A stretch of DNA of 64,000 nucleotides from Minisyncoccota bacterium (GCA_041659205.1 JBAZYS010000003.1:3266-67265), one strand, 5' to 3'. Positions 16,321 to 29,016 are shown, counted from the stretch's first letter. Notes: generated from the sequence alone by a model not told the origin. Numbers and translations are program-made.

Positions 16321-17193
16321 TCATATCCCTTCTTTTTTCAACTCTTCCAAGAGTTCACGGGCTTTTTTAGAAATCTTACTAGGTATTTTTACTCTTATTC
16401 TTATGAGGAGGTTTCCAGTAGTTCCTCTCGAGGCCGCTTCCCCATAGCCTGTCATCTGAACAGTTTCTCCGTCTCTTATCCCGGCAGGAATATTTATTGA
16501 GACTTCTTCTTCACGACGAAGTACTCCTTTGCCTTTACATGTTTCGCATTTTTCTTTTGGCACTTCTCCTGCACCAAAACAAACTTCACAAGCTCTTGTG
16601 CTTCCAATGTTTCCAAAGATTGTTCTCTTTTGTTCGTGAATTTTACCTTGACCATTGCAATGTTTACAGGTTTCCATTTTAGAACCAGCTTTTGCCCCAG
16701 AGCCCTTACAAGTTAGACAAGTCGAGAGTTTAGTAAGTAAAATCTTCTTATTTACACCCAAGATAGAATCAGTAAGTAAAATTTGTATTTCAGTAGATAT
16801 GTCTCTGCCTCTTTTTGGCTGTGGCCTACCCCCACCCATGCCTCCACCACCTCCAAAAAAATCACTGAATATGTCATTCAAATTTCCGAAATCAAAATCA
16901 GCACTCTGATAAGCCCCTCCACCATTAAAATCAAAACCTCCGAAGCCTTGCGCACCTCCTCCATATCCGCCCGCTCCTGCACTTTCAAAGCCTGAACCAT
17001 ATTGGTCGTATTTTGAACGCTTAGCATCATCAGAAAGGACTTGATAAGCTTCATTCACTTTCTTAAACTCAACCTCATTACCTCCCTTTTTATCAGGGTG
17101 ATGTTTGTGCGCCAACTTATAAAAGGCCTTTTTAATTTCGTCTTTTGACGCACCTTTATTAACGCCTAAAATTTCATAATAATCCTTGCTCAT
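16321..17193 (-). CDS. dnaJ: Chaperone DnaJ (short form with truncated C-terminal domain)
   Basis: J domain with HPD (KLAHKHHPDK), G/F-rich linker, four CxxCxGxG zinc-finger repeats; 290 aa. Confidence 0.85.
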   Translation of the reverse strand: MSKDYYEILGVNKGASKDEIKKAFYKLAHKHHPDKKGGNEVEFKKVNEAYQVLSDDAKRSKYDQYGSGFESAGAGGYGGGAQGFGGFDFNGGGAYQSADFDFGNLNDIFSDFFGGGGGMGGGRPQPKRGRDISTEIQILLTDSILGVNKKILLTKLSTCLTCKGSGAKAGSKMETCKHCNGQGKIHEQKRTIFGNIGSTRACEVCFGAGEVPKEKCETCKGKGVLRREEEVSINIPAGIRDGETVQMTGYGEAASRGTTGNLLIRIRVKIPSKISKKARELLEELKKEGI

Positions 17194-18747: not shown

Positions 18748-20418
18748 CTAGTAAACCTCTTTTTGATAGCATTCTGTACAATACATTATCGGAGCAACAT
18801 CCTCGGTCAAATTTGTGTGAGTTTCTTTCCCACAATTAGAGCATTTACGAACAAAAAACTTAAATGATCCCCGACGGCGAATACGGTCATGATGTCTGCA
18901 GTAAAAACATTGACGTGGAATTGGCAATACCATCTTTTTATAAAAAATATATTCTTGTTCGGTAATTTTATAATTTCTTTCGCAAGAAGTACATTTTAAT
19001 ATTTCATGTATGATTGAATCATCTATATCTTTAATATGATCTGGGATATTTTCAGATAATAGTGTTTCTTTGCCTTTAGTTGTTTGAATGTCATCTTCCC
19101 ATCGGAAACCTTGTATAAGTGCTTCATTTTTAGTTAAAGGCAAATTATCTTGAGCGATTGTTTCATTATAAGCAAAAGGTGCAATATTTGGTGGCATCAT
19201 TAAACCATGAATTCCAAGCATTATTAATTCATCTATTATGTGTTTTTTTAGCTCTTCGTATTCATCTTTTGAATATTCTTTATTAAAGATAGAATAACGT
19301 CCATTCCTTAAAGCATCGCATCCTATGCAATCGTGACAATTTCTTATTTCAAATGAATATAAAATATTACTACAATTTTCAGGCCAATAAGAACCTATCA
19401 CGTTGCTACAGTATCCAGTAGCAACCACTTCAAGCAATAATTCTGATTGAGTTCCATAGCCGATAGTTCCCAGAGAATCCTTTATGTTTTTAGAGGAAAA
19501 AAGATACCTTGAATTTTCCCCTTTTGAAACTTCGAATGAATTATAAACGTTCTTGCACTCCGTCAAATAGTCTCCTATCGAATTTACCGTCTTTAGATTA
19601 TTATTTTCTCTTCTTGGAAGAGTTTTAGAAAATTCAATAAACTTCTTTTTTGCTTCTTCAGTTTTTTTATAACTCCCTTTTATCTCCTGAATTCTTTTTT
19701 GATATTCATCAGCACTTAGTTGTTCATTAAAATAACAATTGCTTTTATTTCTTAAATTTACACAACCAAAACAGTTTGTAAGCCCACTACCATTCAAGAT
19801 AAAAGATGAGTCTACGCAACTCGTAACATTTTGACTCCATAATACGCTAGCAGATTCTTGAACATTTATGCATTCATAACAGCGTTCAAAATTAACTCCA
19901 AAATATATATCTGAGGAATCCAACCCTTTTTTAACACCCCTTGAATAGAGGAGGTCTTCTGATGGACTGGTATTAAAAACTAAGTAACAATTTCTACAAC
20001 CACCAGCCATATTAGTATATTCACTATTAATATTGGGTCCATCACCAGAAGAAATGCCTAAATTTATTTTAGGAACTTTAATTAAAAATTCCCCCATTTG
20101 GTCAAAAAAAGGGCGATTTTTATCATATTCCGTAGCATAATCTTTCGGGTCCCATTTTTCAGAGTAAAAACAGTCATAACAATATTTTTTGTATGATGAT
20201 TTTGGATTATACATTGTGATAATATGTTTCTGACATAAATCACATTTTTGCCCAGAATATAATGTGGTCTCGTTTCTCCACATTGCACGCATCTTAAAAC
20301 GACAATCAGGACAAACTTTCGGCACTGGTACTTTCATTCTTTCGTAAAATGAAAAATCATCCATTTCTAAGGTGAAATCCTGTTTGCAATTCTGACAATT
20401 TCTCGTTTCATTTCGCAT
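18748..20418 (-). CDS. Cysteine-rich multi-zinc-ribbon protein, paralog B
   Basis: 556 aa; same architecture as paralog A (CQNCKQDF...FYERMKVPVP..CPDCR; internal Y.IFNKEYSKDEY; C-terminal YCTECYQKEVY). Confidence 0.7.
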   Translation of the reverse strand: MRNETRNCQNCKQDFTLEMDDFSFYERMKVPVPKVCPDCRFKMRAMWRNETTLYSGQKCDLCQKHIITMYNPKSSYKKYCYDCFYSEKWDPKDYATEYDKNRPFFDQMGEFLIKVPKINLGISSGDGPNINSEYTNMAGGCRNCYLVFNTSPSEDLLYSRGVKKGLDSSDIYFGVNFERCYECINVQESASVLWSQNVTSCVDSSFILNGSGLTNCFGCVNLRNKSNCYFNEQLSADEYQKRIQEIKGSYKKTEEAKKKFIEFSKTLPRRENNNLKTVNSIGDYLTECKNVYNSFEVSKGENSRYLFSSKNIKDSLGTIGYGTQSELLLEVVATGYCSNVIGSYWPENCSNILYSFEIRNCHDCIGCDALRNGRYSIFNKEYSKDEYEELKKHIIDELIMLGIHGLMMPPNIAPFAYNETIAQDNLPLTKNEALIQGFRWEDDIQTTKGKETLLSENIPDHIKDIDDSIIHEILKCTSCERNYKITEQEYIFYKKMVLPIPRQCFYCRHHDRIRRRGSFKFFVRKCSNCGKETHTNLTEDVAPIMYCTECYQKEVY

Positions 20419-23669: not shown

Positions 23670-25568
23670 TTAAACTTTTGGAGCTTCTTCTTCTCCTTCA
23701 GTTTTCTCTTTTACTTCCGCAGCTTGCTCTTCTGGAGCACTTGCTCCTGGAGCCTCTGCGCCGGCACCGGCCTTAGATACGGCTTCGCCAATCTTAGACA
23801 TCTCTGTTGAGAGTTCTTCGGTAGCTTTCTTTATCGCCTCACCGTCAGTACCATCTTTTACTCCACGGAGAGCAGTGATTTTTGCATTAACTTCATCTTT
23901 CAATTCTGCAGGAATTTTAGCTTCATTATCTTTCAATGTTTTCTCCGCAGTGTAGATAATCATTTCCGCTGTATTTTTTATATCAACAACTTCCTTTTTC
24001 TTTTTATCTTCTTCTGCATGAAGTTCAGCGTCAGCTTGCATTTTTTTAATTTCTTCGTCCTTAAGACCAGAACTTGCTTCAATCTTAATTGACTGACTTT
24101 TACCTGAAGCTTTATCCTTTGCAGTAACATTCAAGATCCCGTTCGCATCGACGTCGAAAGCGACTTCAATCTGTGGCATACCACGAGGTGCTGGTGGAAC
24201 TCCATCCAAGATAAATCGTCCTAGGGATTTATTGTCGGAAGCCATTGGGCGTTCACCTTGAACTATATGAATTTCAACAGAAGTCTGATTGTCCGCAGCC
24301 GTAGAAAATACTTGCGATTTTGAAGACGGAATAGTGGTATTTCTTTCAATTAATTTTGTTGCTACTCCTCCTAATGTCTCAATACCTAATGATAGAGGTA
24401 TAACATCAAGAAGAAGAACATCACGCACATCACCAGCGAGCACTCCTGCCTGCACTGCAGCACCGAGAGCCACAACTTCATCAGGATTGATGGACATATT
24501 TGGAGCCTTGCCGAAAAGAGTCTGCACCGCAGAAACTATCGCTGGCATTCTCGTCTGACCACCTACCATAATGATTTCATTGATGTCATTCATTTTAAAT
24601 GGTGAGGCGGCGAGAGCTCTCTTTGTAATTTCAATTGAGCGATCAATGTATTCCTTTGCAAGAGATTCGAGCATCGCCCGAGTCATTTTCAAAAGTAAGT
24701 GCTTTGGCCCTGATGCATCAGAAGTTATAAATGGAATATTTATTTCAGTTTCCATGGTTGTAGAAAGTTCGTGTTTCGCTTTTTCTGCTGCTTCTTTTAG
24801 TCTCTGATGAGCTAGAGGATCCTTAATAACATCAATCCCTGACTCCTTTTTGTATTCATCCGCGATCCAAGAAATAATTTTTCTATCGATGTCTCCTCCG
24901 CCCATGTGACTGTCTCCATCTGTAGACTTTACTTCTATGACATCATCACCTATCTCTAGAACAGACACGTCAAAAGTACCTCCACCGAAATCGTAGACGA
25001 CAATCTTTTCATTTTTCTTTTTATCGAAACCATAAGCGAGCGCTGCTGCAGTTGGTTCATTGATAATACGCTTCACATCGAGGCCAGCAATAGCTCCTGC
25101 ATCCTTAGTAGCTTTTCTTTGAGCATCGTTGAAATATGCGGGAACGGTAATGACAGCTTCAGTAATCTTTTCACCAAGCTTTGCCTCCACATCTGTTTTA
25201 ATTTTTTGCAAAATCATCGCAGAAATTTCTTCTGGACGATAAAATTTATCTGTCATTTTCACCTTTACTCCACCCCCATCCCCAGCTTCAATTTTAAATG
25301 AGGCTGTTTGTCTATCCTTCTGTACTTCTGGATCATCAAAACGATGCCCCATGAAGCGCTTCATTTCCGCAATCGTATTTTCTGGATTTGTGACTGCTTG
25401 CCTCTTCGCAAGTAAACCGACGATACGGTCACCATTTTTTGCAGTCGCCACCACAGAAGGGGTCGTGCGATTACCTTCGACATTTTCAATAATCTTTGGT
25501 GCGCCTCCTTCAATGAAAGCGACAGCCGAATTTGTTGTACCTAAATCTATTCCTATTATTTTGCTCAT
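23670..25568 (-). CDS. dnaK: Chaperone DnaK (Hsp70)
   Basis: 632 aa; [18 protein letters not shown], and a full NBD plus SBD. Confidence 0.95.
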
Positions 25569-25655
25569 ATTTTATATGGTTATTTTATAATTTAACTTAT
25601 ATTTCGCGACCACTAATTATTTGTATAAAAGTAGTATATATGATAGTATGTAGTC

Positions 25656-26192
25656 ATGTCAAGAAAAGTAGACTATTCAAAGAAAATACTTAAGGTTTTA
25701 GGTGAAAAATCGGCTATTTCCCTACCTGAATTGATAGATAGAATAAGCCCCGAAGAGTGCTCCCAAAGCTCTAAATACGCCCTTACGCGCTCTTTAAAAG
25801 GTCTTCGAGATGCTGGCCTCATCGAACAAATACCATCCTCCCAGAACGAATATGCCAGGCTAACTAAAGAAGGTAGAAAAAAAATGAATAGCCTAAAACT
25901 AGATAATAACACCACTTTGGTAAATACTTCTTGGGATGGTTTTTGGAGGATAATTCTTCTCGACCTCCCAGAGAACAGAAAAGCAGAACGAGAGAGCTTA
26001 CGTTACCTTTTAAAAAAAGCGGGCTTCATATGTTTAAAAAATTCTGCCTGGATTTCCCCTTTCCCATACGAACACTTATTTACAAATATTAAAAAAGATC
26101 TAGGGCTAACTACAGAAATGATGATTATTGTCACTGAAAATATAGACGAGGAGAGCAAAAAAGTTTTATTTAAAACTTTCGGAACCCGGTAG
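25656..26192 (+). CDS. Winged-helix transcriptional regulator, PaaX-like family
   Basis: 178 aa; N-terminal wHTH resembling the PaaX N-terminus; divergently transcribed from dnaK. Confidence 0.5.
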   Translation: MSRKVDYSKKILKVLGEKSAISLPELIDRISPEECSQSSKYALTRSLKGLRDAGLIEQIPSSQNEYARLTKEGRKKMNSLKLDNNTTLVNTSWDGFWRIILLDLPENRKAERESLRYLLKKAGFICLKNSAWISPFPYEHLFTNIKKDLGLTTEMMIIVTENIDEESKKVLFKTFGTR

Positions 26193-26253
26193 TAGAGCTT
26201 TGCGATATGTGAAGCATGCATCTAAGGATGCCTCGCAAAGTCTCACTACCGGG
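26185..26253 (+). other. Long imperfect stem-loop (about 21 bp stem) overlapping the regulator stop codon
   Basis: cccggtagtagagctttgcga ... tcgcaaagtctcactaccggg with about 2 mismatches. Confidence 0.4.
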
Positions 26254-26272
26254 GAAAATAAAATTTACATAT

Positions 26273-26288
26273 TTACGCCATGGCGTAA
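26273..26288. promoter_or_regulatory. 16 bp perfect palindrome TTACGCCATGGCGTAA (operator-like), copy 1
   Basis: Perfect dyad; part of a ~38 bp direct repeat whose second copy is at 26696-26733. Confidence 0.5.
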
Positions 26289-26296
26289 ATATGTAT

Positions 26297-26602
26297 TTAG
26301 GTAATATTTTTCGTCATCCATTCTTTATAGGCGCGATTAATTCTTCGCACATCAACTCCAGCGATAAGTGGCGTGGAATAACTATGATGTTTAGAAACTA
26401 AATCATTCACTTCTTCGAGCTTGGATTCAAGAGTGGTCACCATGAGCATCGTCTGGGATACTTCTTTTAATCCCCCTTCCCAGTTATACATAGAATCGAT
26501 AGCCCAATAATCTACACAGACACCGAGCTTTTTGTCTATGATTAGTTTCCCTAAAAGTTGTGCTTCGATAGAATTCGCGCAAGTTGTATATATAAATACC
26601 AT
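26297..26602 (-). CDS. cutA: Divalent-cation tolerance protein CutA
   Basis: 101 aa; CutA1 fold signature (VFIYTTC...AQLL, SMYNWEG). Confidence 0.7.
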   Translation of the reverse strand: MVFIYTTCANSIEAQLLGKLIIDKKLGVCVDYWAIDSMYNWEGGLKEVSQTMLMVTTLESKLEEVNDLVSKHHSYSTPLIAGVDVRRINRAYKEWMTKNIT

Positions 26603-26696
26603 AAAATTAGAGTACGATATTTGATAAACAGAATAGCCCGACCTTTATAGTATTATACTCCTTTTATAATAAACTAGGATATTCTTATATTCCAAT

Positions 26697-26712
26697 ATAC
26701 GCCATGGCGTAT
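26697..26712. promoter_or_regulatory. 16 bp perfect palindrome ATACGCCATGGCGTAT, copy 2, about 90 bp upstream of the cutA start
   Basis: Perfect dyad sharing its 14 bp core TACGCCATGGCGTA with copy 1. Confidence 0.5.
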
Positions 26713-26719
26713 ATGTGTA

Positions 26720-28390
26720 TTAAGCCATATTTTGTTTATAACATTCTTCGCAAGCAATTTTTTGGTATTCCCATTCCGGTAAATAATATGCCTCAATGTC
26801 CTTTTTACAATAAAAACAAGAGTATGGATACGCCTGAAGAGCCGTCAAATACTTTAATTGATTTCTTGTTCGTACGTCAAAATGATATCGTGGAAGTGGG
26901 ATACTATTTTCTTTATAGAATATCAATTCATTTTGTGCAATATTAAAACGCCAATTAGATTTTGGGCAGATAAGTGCTTGATTAATAATAGAATCTGAAA
27001 CATCTTTTATATCGTCAGGTAATTCATTTGTTTGCATTCCTTCAATATTACTTTCATCAACATCTTCCCAATAACCACCCAGCCTTAAAATATCTTCTTT
27101 TTTTGTATCTCCAAAATACAAATAACTAGTAGAAAAATTAAATGATCCAGCGCTCATTGAATATGGCAAAAACTTTCCATATTCCCCATTTTTTTTCATA
27201 TTTGAAATAATTTTATTTTTCAAAATTTCATATTCCTCTTTACTATATTGCTTATTTAAAATACAATATTTCTTTTTCTTTATACCAACACAACCAAAAC
27301 AATATTCACATTCAGTACAAATGTCTAAATATTCGGAATATCTTGAAGAAGACCAAACACTGTATTTTTCTGCATAACCATACAGGCAACAACTACAATT
27401 TCCAGATAATTCAGTAAACCAGCAACCATCAGCGTCGATATTAGACTTTTCGTTAATGCCCCTAATGCAGTTATGACAATCTTCAGAATTGCTGATGGTG
27501 TTGCAATTGTGGCAATTTTTACAATCTAATAAATAATCTCCATCAGAACTATATATTTTAAAATTAAAATTTTCCCTATGAACAACTTCATTTTTTATTA
27601 TTTCATCAAAACGTTCTTTAAAAGATTGTATAGATTCATAAGATCCAAGATTAAATGATTTTAATTTTTCTTCATATTCTTCCTTGGTGTATTGCTTATT
27701 TTCTATGCAATATTGTTTATTACGTAGATTCCAACTCATGAAACAATTCTGGCAATTTCTACAATCATATAAAAAGCTTGATTCTATACAATCACGAGAA
27801 TGCTTTGAATAAAAAAGTTTATAAGAATGATGACAATCTGAGCAGTCAAAACTTTTTTCACAACTAAAACATATTGTCATATCTATAGAATTTTTTACAT
27901 AAAAACCTCTATATGAATAAAACAAATCTTCACATTGTTCCAACGAACGTGATAAATAACAATTTTTAGAATTCCAGACATCATCACACCAATCACATTT
28001 TATGTTTTTAGTACCATTCTGATGTGGATGAGGAACACGCTCTTGAAGATCTTGCAATTGTTTAAAAAATAGTTGATTCTCATTATATTCTACTCCATAA
28101 TCCATAGCGTCCCATTTATCGCTGTACCATTCCTTAGAAGTATAAATAGGATATCTATTTTTCTCTGGTAAAACTGTAATTAAGCCTTCTCCTGATAAAT
28201 CTGATTTCCCTTTACGAAATTTTCCAAACATCCAGAATGATAAATGTAATTTAACACGGCAAAAAAAACACAAAATGGGTAATTCAATATCAACTTTTTG
28301 ATATAAAGAAAATTCCTCTTCTGTAATTATGAAGTCTTTTTTACAATGTTCACAAATTCTATTCTCCTTTTTCTTTGAATTCATACACAT
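26720..28390 (-). CDS. Cysteine-rich multi-zinc-ribbon protein, paralog C
   Basis: 556 aa; CEHCKKDF...; internal duplicated module with YCIENKQYTKEEYEEKLK and YCILNKQYSKEEYEILKNK; overlaps the grpE stop by about 30 bp. Confidence 0.7.
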   Translation of the reverse strand: MCMNSKKKENRICEHCKKDFIITEEEFSLYQKVDIELPILCFFCRVKLHLSFWMFGKFRKGKSDLSGEGLITVLPEKNRYPIYTSKEWYSDKWDAMDYGVEYNENQLFFKQLQDLQERVPHPHQNGTKNIKCDWCDDVWNSKNCYLSRSLEQCEDLFYSYRGFYVKNSIDMTICFSCEKSFDCSDCHHSYKLFYSKHSRDCIESSFLYDCRNCQNCFMSWNLRNKQYCIENKQYTKEEYEEKLKSFNLGSYESIQSFKERFDEIIKNEVVHRENFNFKIYSSDGDYLLDCKNCHNCNTISNSEDCHNCIRGINEKSNIDADGCWFTELSGNCSCCLYGYAEKYSVWSSSRYSEYLDICTECEYCFGCVGIKKKKYCILNKQYSKEEYEILKNKIISNMKKNGEYGKFLPYSMSAGSFNFSTSYLYFGDTKKEDILRLGGYWEDVDESNIEGMQTNELPDDIKDVSDSIINQALICPKSNWRFNIAQNELIFYKENSIPLPRYHFDVRTRNQLKYLTALQAYPYSCFYCKKDIEAYYLPEWEYQKIACEECYKQNMA

Positions 28391-28955
28391 TCACCCGGGC
28401 TGGGCGCATGACGCGTTCGCCTAGCTTATAACCCTTCTGAGTTACAGTGGCTACCTTATGTTCTAATTCTTTTCTGTCTGTTTCTACAACATCTATAGAC
28501 TGATGAATACTAGGATCAAAACTCTCCCCCACTTCTCCGACGGGCTTTACTCCATATTCCTCGAATATTCCGTTCATCTGTGCATAAATATATTCCACAC
28601 CTTTGCGCCAATTATCTTCTACTTTTTCCCAAGCATCTTTGTTTGCAAAAGCCATATTAAAACTATCAATCACAGAAAGAAAACGAGTAAGAATTCTCTC
28701 ACGCATCGCTTCTGAAAAAATAGCTTTTCTCTCATCTTCTTGTTTTCTATAGTTAGCAAATTCTGCTCGCTCCTTCTGCCAGCCAGTCAAATACTCTTCC
28801 TTTTCTTTCTTGAGCTCTTTTATATCCGCTCTAAATTTCTTTAAAGTTTTCTTCAAATCCTCTTCCCCGTCTTCATTGAATTCAAATTCAAGAACCTCGG
28901 AATCATCCTTTTTTTCCTCAAGATTATCTTCTTTTTTAATTTCTTCATCTGCCAT
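28359..28955 (-). CDS. grpE: Nucleotide exchange factor GrpE
   Basis: 198 aa; coiled-coil N-terminus and GrpE C-terminal beta domain. Confidence 0.85.
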   Translation of the reverse strand: MADEEIKKEDNLEEKKDDSEVLEFEFNEDGEEDLKKTLKKFRADIKELKKEKEEYLTGWQKERAEFANYRKQEDERKAIFSEAMRERILTRFLSVIDSFNMAFANKDAWEKVEDNWRKGVEYIYAQMNGIFEEYGVKPVGEVGESFDPSIHQSIDVVETDRKELEHKVATVTQKGYKLGERVMRPARVNVYEFKEKGE

Positions 28956-28972
28956 ATTTACTCATCTTAGCA

Positions 28973-29000
28973 TAAAAATCCCCTCTTTTCTAGAGGGGAT
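28973..29000 (-). terminator. Rho-independent terminator of rpsI
   Basis: Hairpin atcccctcttttctagaggggat flanked by A/T runs. Confidence 0.65.
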
Positions 29001-29016
29001 TTTTTGTAAAATATAA

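Follow-up and report, generated by a model that had tools for sequence, protein, structure and literature searches.

A candidate PaaX-like repressor of dnaK and a lineage-wide palindromic element at a Paceibacteria chaperone locus

The natural comparison for the control of a dnaK locus is with HrcA and the controlling inverted repeat of chaperone expression (CIRCE), or with HspR and the HspR-associated inverted repeat (HAIR), and the hrcA gene classically adjoins grpE. Two kinds of repeat are also relevant here: systems of repetitive extragenic palindromes (REP) with REP-associated tyrosine transposases (RAYT) have tens to hundreds of dispersed copies per genome, and an array of clustered regularly interspaced short palindromic repeats (CRISPR) has at least three regular repeats with spacers of 25-50 bp, plus cas1. 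To our knowledge, regulation in the candidate phyla radiation (CPR, Patescibacteria) is almost wholly unknown, and most of these bacteria have not been grown in pure culture. PaaX controls its own gene and, at divergent promoters, binds inverted repeats in competition with RNA polymerase; the published site in E. coli is TGATTC-N27-GAATCA (PMC9493321). The present analysis concerns a stretch of 64 kb (the window; Minisyncoccota bacterium, GCA_041659205.1, JBAZYS010000003.1:3266-67265), A+T-rich with 36% G+C, in which a gene for a PaaX-like regulator is divergent from dnaK and two perfect palindromes lie around cutA, between the regulator gene and grpE.

The reading preferred here, with a probability of roughly 0.55, is that the regulator is a candidate repressor of dnaK acting through a 36-bp inverted repeat, and that the palindromes are lineage-wide, protein-recognised elements of gene boundaries. 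The striking perfect palindromes beside the regulator would then be a generic element of the lineage and not a local operator, while the regulator and its single operator candidate offer a testable model of chaperone control where the locus shows no HrcA or CIRCE. Orthologous loci were compared in a set of 80, each from a different GTDB species and fetched via the regulator; gene neighbours were assigned by open reading frame (ORF) list, Pfam and tblastn. L-numbers denote fetched loci and P-numbers looked-up proteins.

A PaaX-like regulator and its candidate operator

Known heat-shock control was sought by pattern scans and by homology. Neither CIRCE (TTAGCACTC-N9-GAGTGCTAA) nor HAIR (CTTGAGT-N7-ACTCAAG) has a match in the window at up to three mismatches, and with B. 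subtilis HrcA as the tblastn query there was no match in the window or in 200 fetched loci. A GroEL homologue was likewise not matched by tblastn within the window. The initial annotation, made from the sequence alone, had reported the absence of HrcA, CIRCE and HAIR, and for the window this is borne out.

The regulator carries a Cas2-like PaaX_M domain (PF20803) at residues 91-168 (Pfam E = 2.4e-19). Its AlphaFold (AF2) model, with a mean predicted local distance difference test score of 71.5, consists of a winged helix of three helices (residues 7-15, 23-30 and 37-52) and a beta wing (56-69), followed by a ferredoxin-like domain of beta-alpha-beta-alpha-beta-alpha order. In Foldseek, E. coli PaaX (8A39, E = 2.6e-5) ranks first among PDB entries, ahead of winged helices of the MarR type and of the PaaX-like 3KFW; a sequence search of the PDB gave no match. 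The protein ends at residue 178, where Pfam finds no PaaX_C domain, and it scores 32.1 bits against the NCBIfam PaaX equivalog (TIGR02277), for which the cutoff is 264.55. Because the C-terminal domain is missing and the score is far under the equivalog cutoff, the regulator is a truncated PaaX-like protein and not a true PaaX. No paa genes were found among its neighbours (dnaK, cutA and grpE).

Homologues of the regulator number 2107, the best 120 of which are 75-100% identical to it. In all 72 related species with enough flank for a count, the gene and dnaK are transcribed divergently, and grpE is downstream of the gene in 52 of 63 loci. Domain assignment, fold model and gene order thus agree with the winged-helix, PaaX-like regulator, transcribed away from dnaK, that had been described at the outset. 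The constancy of the divergent arrangement makes the regulator a good candidate for a new heat-shock repressor, and no paper tying PaaX-like proteins, Cas2-like domains or HrcA to CPR heat shock was found in the literature searched. Of the non-canonical heat-shock control that the initial annotation had suggested, the part that stands is therefore the regulator, a strong candidate by its linkage to dnaK and grpE; the part that falls is the palindromes as its operators, for which the evidence is given in the next section.

The spacers between dnaK and the regulator gene have one block in common, approximately TTAGCAAGTATTTCGYGRYCRCGAAATACTTGTCAA. It contains the candidate operator, an inverted repeat of 36 bp (symmetrised family consensus TttACAAGTATTTCGTGATCACGAAATACTTGTaaA) that is conserved in about 79 of the 80 species, its 16-nt core occurring once per locus. 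In 51 of 81 loci the distance from the start of the repeat to the regulator ATG is 54 nt, and in 69 of 81 it is between 44 and 66 nt; in L019 the distance to the regulator is kept although dnaK lies about 1.8 kb away. A weight matrix derived from the remaining 79 species (40 bits of information) finds a single site in the window, at 37.1 bits, and the next best scores -6.7. In many relatives the outer arms are -35-like hexamers, TTGCTA on the strand of dnaK and TTGTCA on that of the regulator gene, and each lies 15-17 nt from a TATAAT-like hexamer (the transcription starts being predicted). Since the outer arms coincide with these hexamers, a dimer on the repeat would cover both -35 regions.

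It is proposed that this winged-helix and Cas2-like protein takes the place of hrcA or hspR in the dnaK-grpE cluster of this Paceibacteria bacterium. The regulator would bind the 36-bp repeat as a dimer and, because the candidate operator lies at the heart of the two divergent promoters, binding would repress both dnaK, possibly with dnaJ, and the regulator gene itself, so that autoregulation is expected. Both the pairing of protein with operator and the repression are inferred from position and conservation. Heat might be sensed by titration of the regulator by a chaperone or through a thermolabile dimer. Two observations weigh against the proposal: the right half of the operator is degenerate in the subgroup to which the window belongs (CACTAAT versus CGCGAAA), and the dnaK start of transcription is a prediction, so that the geometry of repression is not fixed.

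G+C-rich hairpins recur between the operator and the dnaK start in L003, L011, L014, L021, L029, L039 and L052, and also in L028, L032, L044 and L045. Among them are AATCCCGATCCGATAATCGGGGTT and CCCGACGTTTCAGTCGGGACCCGAC...GTCGGG. Their position would place them in the 5' leader of dnaK, where they may be insertions or may serve as a leader structure, for example an RNA thermometer.

Palindromes at gene boundaries and a solo Cas2-like gene

The 14-mer TACGCCATGGCGTA, the core of both palindromes, occurs exactly twice in the window, and allowing up to two mismatches reveals no third site in the 64 kb, where 0.06 would be expected by chance. Perfect symmetry extends over 30 bp in copy 1 (TACATATTTACGCCATGGCGTAAATATGTA) and 20 bp in copy 2 (ATATACGCCATGGCGTATAT), the third-longest perfect palindrome in the window being 16 bp. 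The pair around cutA that the initial annotation had described is thus present where it was placed, and both members are longer than the 16 bp given. Direct repeats of about 38 bp had been reported as well; a repeat is real, its two 30-nt members (26271-26300 and 26695-26724) being 87% identical at a distance of 424 bp, and beyond them a weaker likeness runs a few codons into the 3' ends of both genes. Copy 1 stands where the regulator gene and cutA converge, 80 nt past the regulator stop and 2 nt past the cutA stop. Copy 2 lies 5 nt past the stop of a cysteine-rich (Cys-rich) gene and about 92 nt upstream of the cutA ATG, with its centre some 59 nt upstream of the predicted cutA transcription start. 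Both palindromes are therefore directly 3' of minus-strand stop codons, at 5 nt or less.

That the palindromes are operators of the 178-amino acid regulator, as part of heat-shock control, is a reading suggested by the closeness of copy 1 to the regulator gene and by TACGC-type palindromes directly after the same gene in L002, L006, L032 and L068. The palindrome and the candidate operator also have a CGC-N4-GCG core and A+T-rich arms in common, and the home gene of the palindrome family, described below, is a paralogue of the regulator. The operator matrix, however, scores the two palindromes at -38.8 and -44.9 bits as against 37.1 for the candidate operator. No palindrome stands upstream of dnaK, grpE or dnaJ, the element is absent from the locus in about 70 of the 80 species, and it recurs in at least 120 unrelated contexts. 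An operator role for the regulator, which had been proposed from the sequence of the window, is very improbable in the light of these results.

Counted with degenerate core and arm positions allowed, the palindrome is present in 10 of the 80 species, at differing junctions and nearly always in the variable stretch between the regulator gene and grpE; regulator identity across the loci that lack it is 53-92%. It follows cutA in the window, L006 and L068, and follows the Cys-rich gene in the window, L002, L010, L032, L050, L142, L169 and L178, standing elsewhere after a Cys-rich paralogue. Between the regulator gene and grpE there may be nothing, cutA, the Cys-rich gene, both or others, and cutA, present in 14 of the 80 loci, is one of several genes that come and go there. 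This highly variable gene content, together with the palindrome pairs that bracket single genes elsewhere (the Cys-rich paralogue in L002 and L103, the small gene described below in many loci), would suit a second idea from the initial annotation, that a cassette carrying cutA was set between grpE and dnaK and has the repeats as its duplicated ends; such a cassette would be of an integron or site-specific recombination type. Comparison of the orthologous loci, with an outcome that the initial annotation had itself set as a refutation, speaks against the idea, for in nine species cutA is in the same position without an adjoining palindrome (L001, L004, L023, L035, L050, L051, L055, L056 and L057), and the order regulator-cutA-Cys-rich-grpE is found with no palindrome (L001), one (L010) or two (the window). 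Moreover, each copy follows the 3' end of the gene upstream of that copy and is not tied to cutA, neither copy has an attC-type GTTRRRY core, and no recombinase or integrase was found among the genes examined around the locus, the whole window not having been scanned for one. The cassette is hardly tenable as an explanation.

Further copies of the palindrome, for which a search had been recommended, are many across metagenomes and lie in unrelated contexts, a result that the initial annotation had also named as one that would tell against its proposal. The pattern ATNTACGCCATGGCGTANAT (exact, 18 specified bases) is found in at least 120 metagenomic contigs, mostly of 30-45% G+C and with diverse surroundings; a scan of viral contigs gave no match. 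The family consensus is the 26-bp CACATNTACGCCATGGCGTANATGTG, conservation covering all 26 bp including the loop across many genera. Among loops, CATG is by far the commonest, followed by TATA and then by TATC, CATA and TATG. There is usually one matching stretch per long contig (130-280 kb) among the matches listed, as compared with two copies in the window of 64 kb. Within the matches listed, 149 ORFs adjoin a palindrome: 37 are small Cas2-like genes, 14 are Cys-rich genes and 72 are singletons, which makes the Cys-rich family the next most frequent neighbour after the small gene. By tblastn, the small Cas2-like gene is next to the palindrome in about 30 of 120 loci among the matches listed, and 13 loci of that listing hold two copies, which in 11 of the 13 lie 407-467 bp apart and bracket a gene of roughly 120-135 amino acids. 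Copies outside the small gene are scattered and extragenic, often at 3' ends or between convergent genes.

Several features of the family were recorded alongside this distribution. Tandem clusters of two or three copies, 40-130 bp apart, occur in L096, L099, L109, L133 and L137, often with a CATG-loop copy paired with a TATA-loop copy in one spacer. There is a recurrent asymmetric arm variant, GCTGA, giving the form TCAGC-NNNN-GCGTA with two mismatched stem pairs (L002, L032, L050, L051, L078, L098, L108, L127, L136, L159, L163, L179 and L190). In 17 of 18 cases its orientation matches the transcription of the neighbouring gene; since many of the sites are probably orthologous, this is not taken as independent evidence for a strand-specific (RNA) role. 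The change of loop from CATG to TATA was considered as a sign of a dimer on duplex DNA and was dropped, since TATC, CATA and TATG also occur. Swapped arms between two flanking copies, which would have suggested terminal inverted repeats or inversion, were also dropped, being inconsistent across loci when compared by eye.

The small gene encodes a protein of about 125 amino acids with PaaX_M and Cas2 domains, and its layout is regular. The upstream palindrome covers the -35 region and ends 27-31 nt before the ATG, between the two stands a (TG)nTATAAT box at 6-9 nt from the ATG, and a second palindrome follows 2-30 nt past the stop codon or overlaps it. So short a distance from TATAAT to ATG implies a leaderless or nearly leaderless mRNA and puts the middle of the palindrome at about -34. 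Of the roughly 35 loci with the small gene, most have a copy on each side of it. Two look-ups that were independent of the pattern, L201 (P0233) and L203 (P0137), each have the pair of flanking copies and, across 20 kb, none besides. The flanking sites change with the protein lineage: divergent relatives carry variants on both flanks, namely TCCACCATGGTGGA in L140 and L205, CACCATGGTG in L206, TCAGCCATGGCTGA with TACGCC in L207, and a GCGCA arm on both sides in L208.

About 1900 homologues of the small protein exist, mostly annotated as 'CRISPR-associated endonuclease Cas2' or 'PaaX'. It just passes NCBIfam cas2 (26-33 bits versus a cutoff of 24.5 bits) and also Pfam CRISPR_Cas2; its matches to Cas2 structures are weak (E around 1e-2), and a PDB sequence search gave chance matches only. 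No cas1 is present in the gene tables of L201-L208, and neither other cas genes nor a CRISPR array were seen near the copies examined. A gene widely labelled as a CRISPR-associated endonuclease thus has no CRISPR context in the loci examined, a point of some weight for annotation. The small gene appears to be a conserved, single-copy, housekeeping-type gene of Paceibacteria, and its product is a paralogue of the C-terminal domain of the regulator. L160 encodes, at 940-1560, a full-length paralogue of 161 amino acids with an intact winged helix and PaaX_M, which links the regulator and the small family and shares YKGV.VN..G.P with the latter; upstream of this gene is an element framed by TTGTCAA...TTGACAA with a GCGATAGCG core, and downstream is a TACGCTATCGCG hairpin. 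Aligned with the regulator and with the 161-residue paralogue, the small protein shows the build of winged helix and PaaX_M but has lost about 30 residues, comprising the recognition helix (helix 3) and part of the wing. That it binds DNA or RNA is a conjecture.

From these patterns it is suggested that the palindromes are sequence-specifically recognised, hairpin-capable elements of gene boundaries and, with moderate confidence, that their home is the solo Cas2-like gene. They may help to form 3' ends, may serve as roadblock or insulator and, at the home gene, may be an operator, and the most likely binder is, putatively, the solo Cas2-like protein or a partner. We infer this pairing, and the boundary function, from distribution and from the co-variation of flanking sites with protein lineage. 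Extra copies stand sporadically at other gene boundaries, notably those of Cys-rich genes, the window copies after the cutA and Cys-rich stops among them.

One alternative is that the two palindromes of the window simply end the transcription of cutA and the Cys-rich gene, as Rho-independent (bidirectional) terminators of the ordinary kind that are alike only through local duplication of a 3'-end segment. Copy 1 has the form of a bidirectional intrinsic terminator, a likeness that counts against a more special role: on the minus strand, a 13-bp stem with a CAUG loop is followed by AAUUUUAUUU, the flanks being A-rich on the 5' side and T-rich on the 3' side, and the hairpin (fold -15.9 kcal/mol, z = -4.9) ranks first in the terminator scan. 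The closeness of both copies to stop codons, the extension of the 30-nt repeat into the stop-codon context and the other long hairpins that many relatives have at the same convergent junction also fit. Copy 2, however, is without a T-rich tail (its tail is UGGAAUAU) and folds only weakly better than shuffles (-9.9 kcal/mol, z = -1.8), and 58% of 122 family members have a T-rich tail on neither side. The usual terminators of the window, with an A-tract, a G+C-rich stem and a T-tract, are built differently from the family, and a terminator would not explain a 26-bp sequence conserved with its loop across many genera and contexts, or a copy at a fixed distance upstream of the small-gene promoter, where no terminator is needed. 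L001, with the same genes, has its convergent stop codons 3 nt apart and no hairpin. On balance the terminator alternative is judged unlikely, although under the boundary-element reading copy 1 probably also serves as the cutA terminator and would shield the convergent regulator gene from antisense read-through.

Alternatively, the palindromes could be REP-like mobile or parasitic repeats, mobilised in trans by the solo Cas2-like nuclease, and the window copies sporadic insertions. A single conserved gene flanked by two copies, the extragenic position of other copies, the tandem clusters, the variable presence in syntenic loci and the shift of flank variant with protein lineage would all be expected, and the Cas2 fold is a nuclease fold. 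Against mobilisation stand the low density (two copies in 64 kb, and only the gene's own pair in two loci of 20 kb), the lack of visible target-site duplications, and a protein that is not of a known transposase type, while the tight promoter geometry of the upstream copy suggests regulation instead. This alternative is rated as distinctly improbable.

If the boundary-element reading is kept, the form in which the palindrome is recognised can be argued both ways. A duplex operator is favoured by the fixed geometry at -34, the 26-bp conservation, the low density, the co-variation of flanks with protein and the resemblance of the CGC-N4-GCG core to the candidate operator of the regulator; it is disfavoured by co-varying arm extensions, by copies between convergent genes and by the loss of the recognition helix in the candidate binder. 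Some of these findings tell against the preferred reading as a whole. One quarter of the members extend to at least 16 bp per arm through non-conserved, co-varying complementary arms, which suits a hairpin role better than a classical duplex operator. The small protein is without a canonical recognition helix, and its N-terminal 50 residues are modelled at low confidence. The small gene of L140 is flanked by the TCCACC variant, yet TACGCC-type copies lie elsewhere on the same contig, and this mixture weakens a simple model of one protein and one site.

More tentatively, as a possibility that we hold to be doubtful, Paceibacteria would have two Cas2-like (PaaX_M) recognition modules, the 178-amino acid dnaK repressor and the palindrome-bracketed solo protein, neither of which was found described in the literature searched. 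The solo module could be a Cas2-fold global factor of boundaries or termination, or else a REP/RAYT-like domesticated element with a Cas2-type nuclease; if true, either reading bears on the relationship between Cas2 and PaaX.

Layout of the chaperone locus and neighbouring features

The features discussed are collected in Table 1. Past grpE, further genes include rpsI, rplM, rplQ and rpoA, with rpsI and rplM upstream of grpE. A classical terminator hairpin after rpsI ends about 18 nt before the grpE ATG, which leaves almost no space for a grpE promoter, and transcripts of grpE may come from the ribosomal-protein operon by read-through. A candidate operator was not found upstream of grpE, the operator scans returning one site per locus, always on the side of the regulator and dnaK. 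At the other end of the cluster, the gap between dnaK and dnaJ holds a type-IV-coupling-protein-like ATPase and a second Cys-rich gene; in more distant relatives dnaJ is directly after dnaK. The ATPase is TrwB/VirD4-like with a treble-clef zinc finger, and its position is kept in most of the closer relatives.

Table 1. Positions of the genes and elements discussed, counted from the first nucleotide of the window.
Feature	Position	Strand	Basis or remark
dnaJ	16321-17193	- (dnaK strand)	tblastn; further downstream of dnaK
Second Cys-rich gene	18748-20418		after the coupling-protein-like ATPase
Coupling-protein-like ATPase, 725 amino acids	20420-22597		between dnaK and dnaJ
dnaK	23670-25568	-	ORF list; tblastn across 80 loci; divergent from regulator
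Candidate operator, 36-bp inverted repeat	25592-25627		core TTTCGCGACCACTAAT at 25602-25617; conservation and weight matrix
Regulator, 178 amino acids	25656-26192	+	Pfam PaaX_M
69-nt hairpin	26185-26253		MITE-like insertion in the last codons of the regulator gene; GAA at 26182-26184 and 26254-26256
Palindrome copy 1, 30 bp, perfect	26266-26295		core 26274-26287
cutA (CutA1 family, 101 amino acids)	26297-26602	-	Pfam CutA1, E = 3.2e-22
Predicted cutA promoter and leader	26603-26657	-	-10 box TATAAT 26657-26652; AAAGGTCG 26646-26639; leader about 45 nt
Palindrome copy 2, 20 bp, perfect	26695-26714		core 26698-26711
Cys-rich protein, 556 amino acids	26720-28390	-	ORF list; no Pfam or NCBIfam match
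grpE	28359-28955	-	Pfam GrpE, E = 4.4e-37
Terminator hairpin after rpsI	28974-29004		within 28956-29016

The 69-nt hairpin at the end of the regulator gene had been noticed from the sequence as a 21-bp stem, and it is real, its 21-nt arms being 81% complementary (RNA fold -38.3 kcal/mol, z = -6.8). In orthologues the regulator gene closes with TTCGGAAAATAA (FGK*), and an empty site is seen in L006, L008, L035 and others. The window reads TTCG-GAA-CCCGGTAG...CTACCGGG-GAA-AATAA, so that the C-terminus changes from FGK* to FGTR*. By this comparison the hairpin is best described as an insertion resembling a miniature inverted-repeat transposable element (MITE), with a target duplication of 3 bp (GAA) or 4 bp (GGAA). 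A second copy, as expected of a multi-copy MITE, was found neither in the window nor in 200 fetched loci or viral contigs. Relatives carry other G+C-rich hairpin insertions at nearby positions, which suggests that small palindromic insertions are common in these genomes.

Long, often perfect palindromes unrelated to the family also lie within about 100 nt past the regulator stop in L007, L011, L021, L028, L031, L037, L041, L048, L065 and L077. Their centres are self-complementary (CATATG, CGGCCG, CTATAG, CCATGG), which is more common than chance would give for loops of 4 nt (1 in 16) and might reflect mutation that perfects palindromes or recognition of the duplex. Rfam identifies only five tRNAs in the whole window at gathering thresholds, and between 25500 and 26800 at E <= 1 it gives one chance small nucleolar RNA match, so that the palindromes, the 69-nt hairpin and the cutA leader are not explained by a known RNA family.

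Upstream of cutA, (T)GGTATAAT-N6-AAAGGTCG is kept in 14 loci, with or without a palindrome. After AAAGGTCG, these 14 species (L001, L004, L010, L035, L050 and others) have a variable hairpin and then CTCTAnTTTT-ATG. The Cys-rich family consists of proteins of about 550-580 amino acids with repeated C..C..C...YC..N.QY.KEEY motifs and no Pfam or NCBIfam assignment. There are several paralogues per genome, with members also in L103, L106, L112 and L183, and the start of the copy next to grpE overlaps the grpE end by 32 nt.

Comparison with known systems

The dnaK side of the locus resembles HrcA/CIRCE and HspR/HAIR in having a candidate repressor gene within the grpE-dnaK-dnaJ cluster, a long inverted repeat at the dnaK promoter and a likelihood of autoregulation, and in some relatives the outermost half-sites (TTAGCAAGT...ACTTGCTAA) begin like the TTAGCA of CIRCE. 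It differs in its parts. The regulator is a winged-helix and Cas2-like protein unrelated to HrcA or to the MerR-type HspR, its gene is divergent from dnaK and not co-transcribed with it, and the candidate operator of 36 bp has the core TTTCGYG-N2-CRCGAAA, unlike CIRCE or HAIR, with none at grpE. We would see in the regulator a functional analogue of HrcA/CIRCE or HspR/HAIR, built from unrelated parts.

PaaX, the phenylacetyl-CoA-responsive regulator of E. coli and Pseudomonas (8A39, 3L09), has the same succession of a winged helix and a Cas2-like dimerisation domain and the same divergent-promoter layout. The regulator described here is much shorter, at 178 as compared with about 305-316 amino acids, is without the ligand-binding C-terminal domain and has no paa genes nearby, and the E. 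coli site does not match the candidate operator.

Of the palindromes, copy 1 is comparable to an intrinsic bidirectional terminator, with which it shares a stable hairpin between convergent genes and, on the cutA strand, A-rich and T-rich flanks; the palindrome family differs in being conserved in sequence, in the absence of T tracts from most members and in having one copy upstream of a promoter. The solo protein resembles the Cas2 of CRISPR-Cas adaptation modules in passing NCBIfam cas2 and Pfam CRISPR_Cas2, in its YDI...Q.SVW region and in its NCBI label of Cas2. It differs from Cas2 in having 50 more residues at the N-terminus, homologous to a winged helix cut short, and its setting differs from a CRISPR locus in having two repeats about 410-470 bp apart, with no array and no cas1 seen in the loci examined. 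With REP/RAYT systems the solo gene has in common its place between two palindromes, the scattered extragenic copies, the tandem clusters and a repeat type that co-varies with the protein; the differences are that the small protein has PaaX_M and Cas2 domains only and is not an HUH/Y1 transposase, that copies are few in the window, the two loci of 20 kb and the long contigs, and that the upstream geometry is operator-like. The pairing of palindrome and solo Cas2-like protein thus has a REP/RAYT-like layout and the geometry of an autoregulated factor, and by its defining traits belongs with neither of these, nor with CRISPR. The association of a Cas2-fold protein with one particular palindromic repeat, away from a CRISPR setting, would bear on the origin both of the PaaX middle domain and of Cas2.

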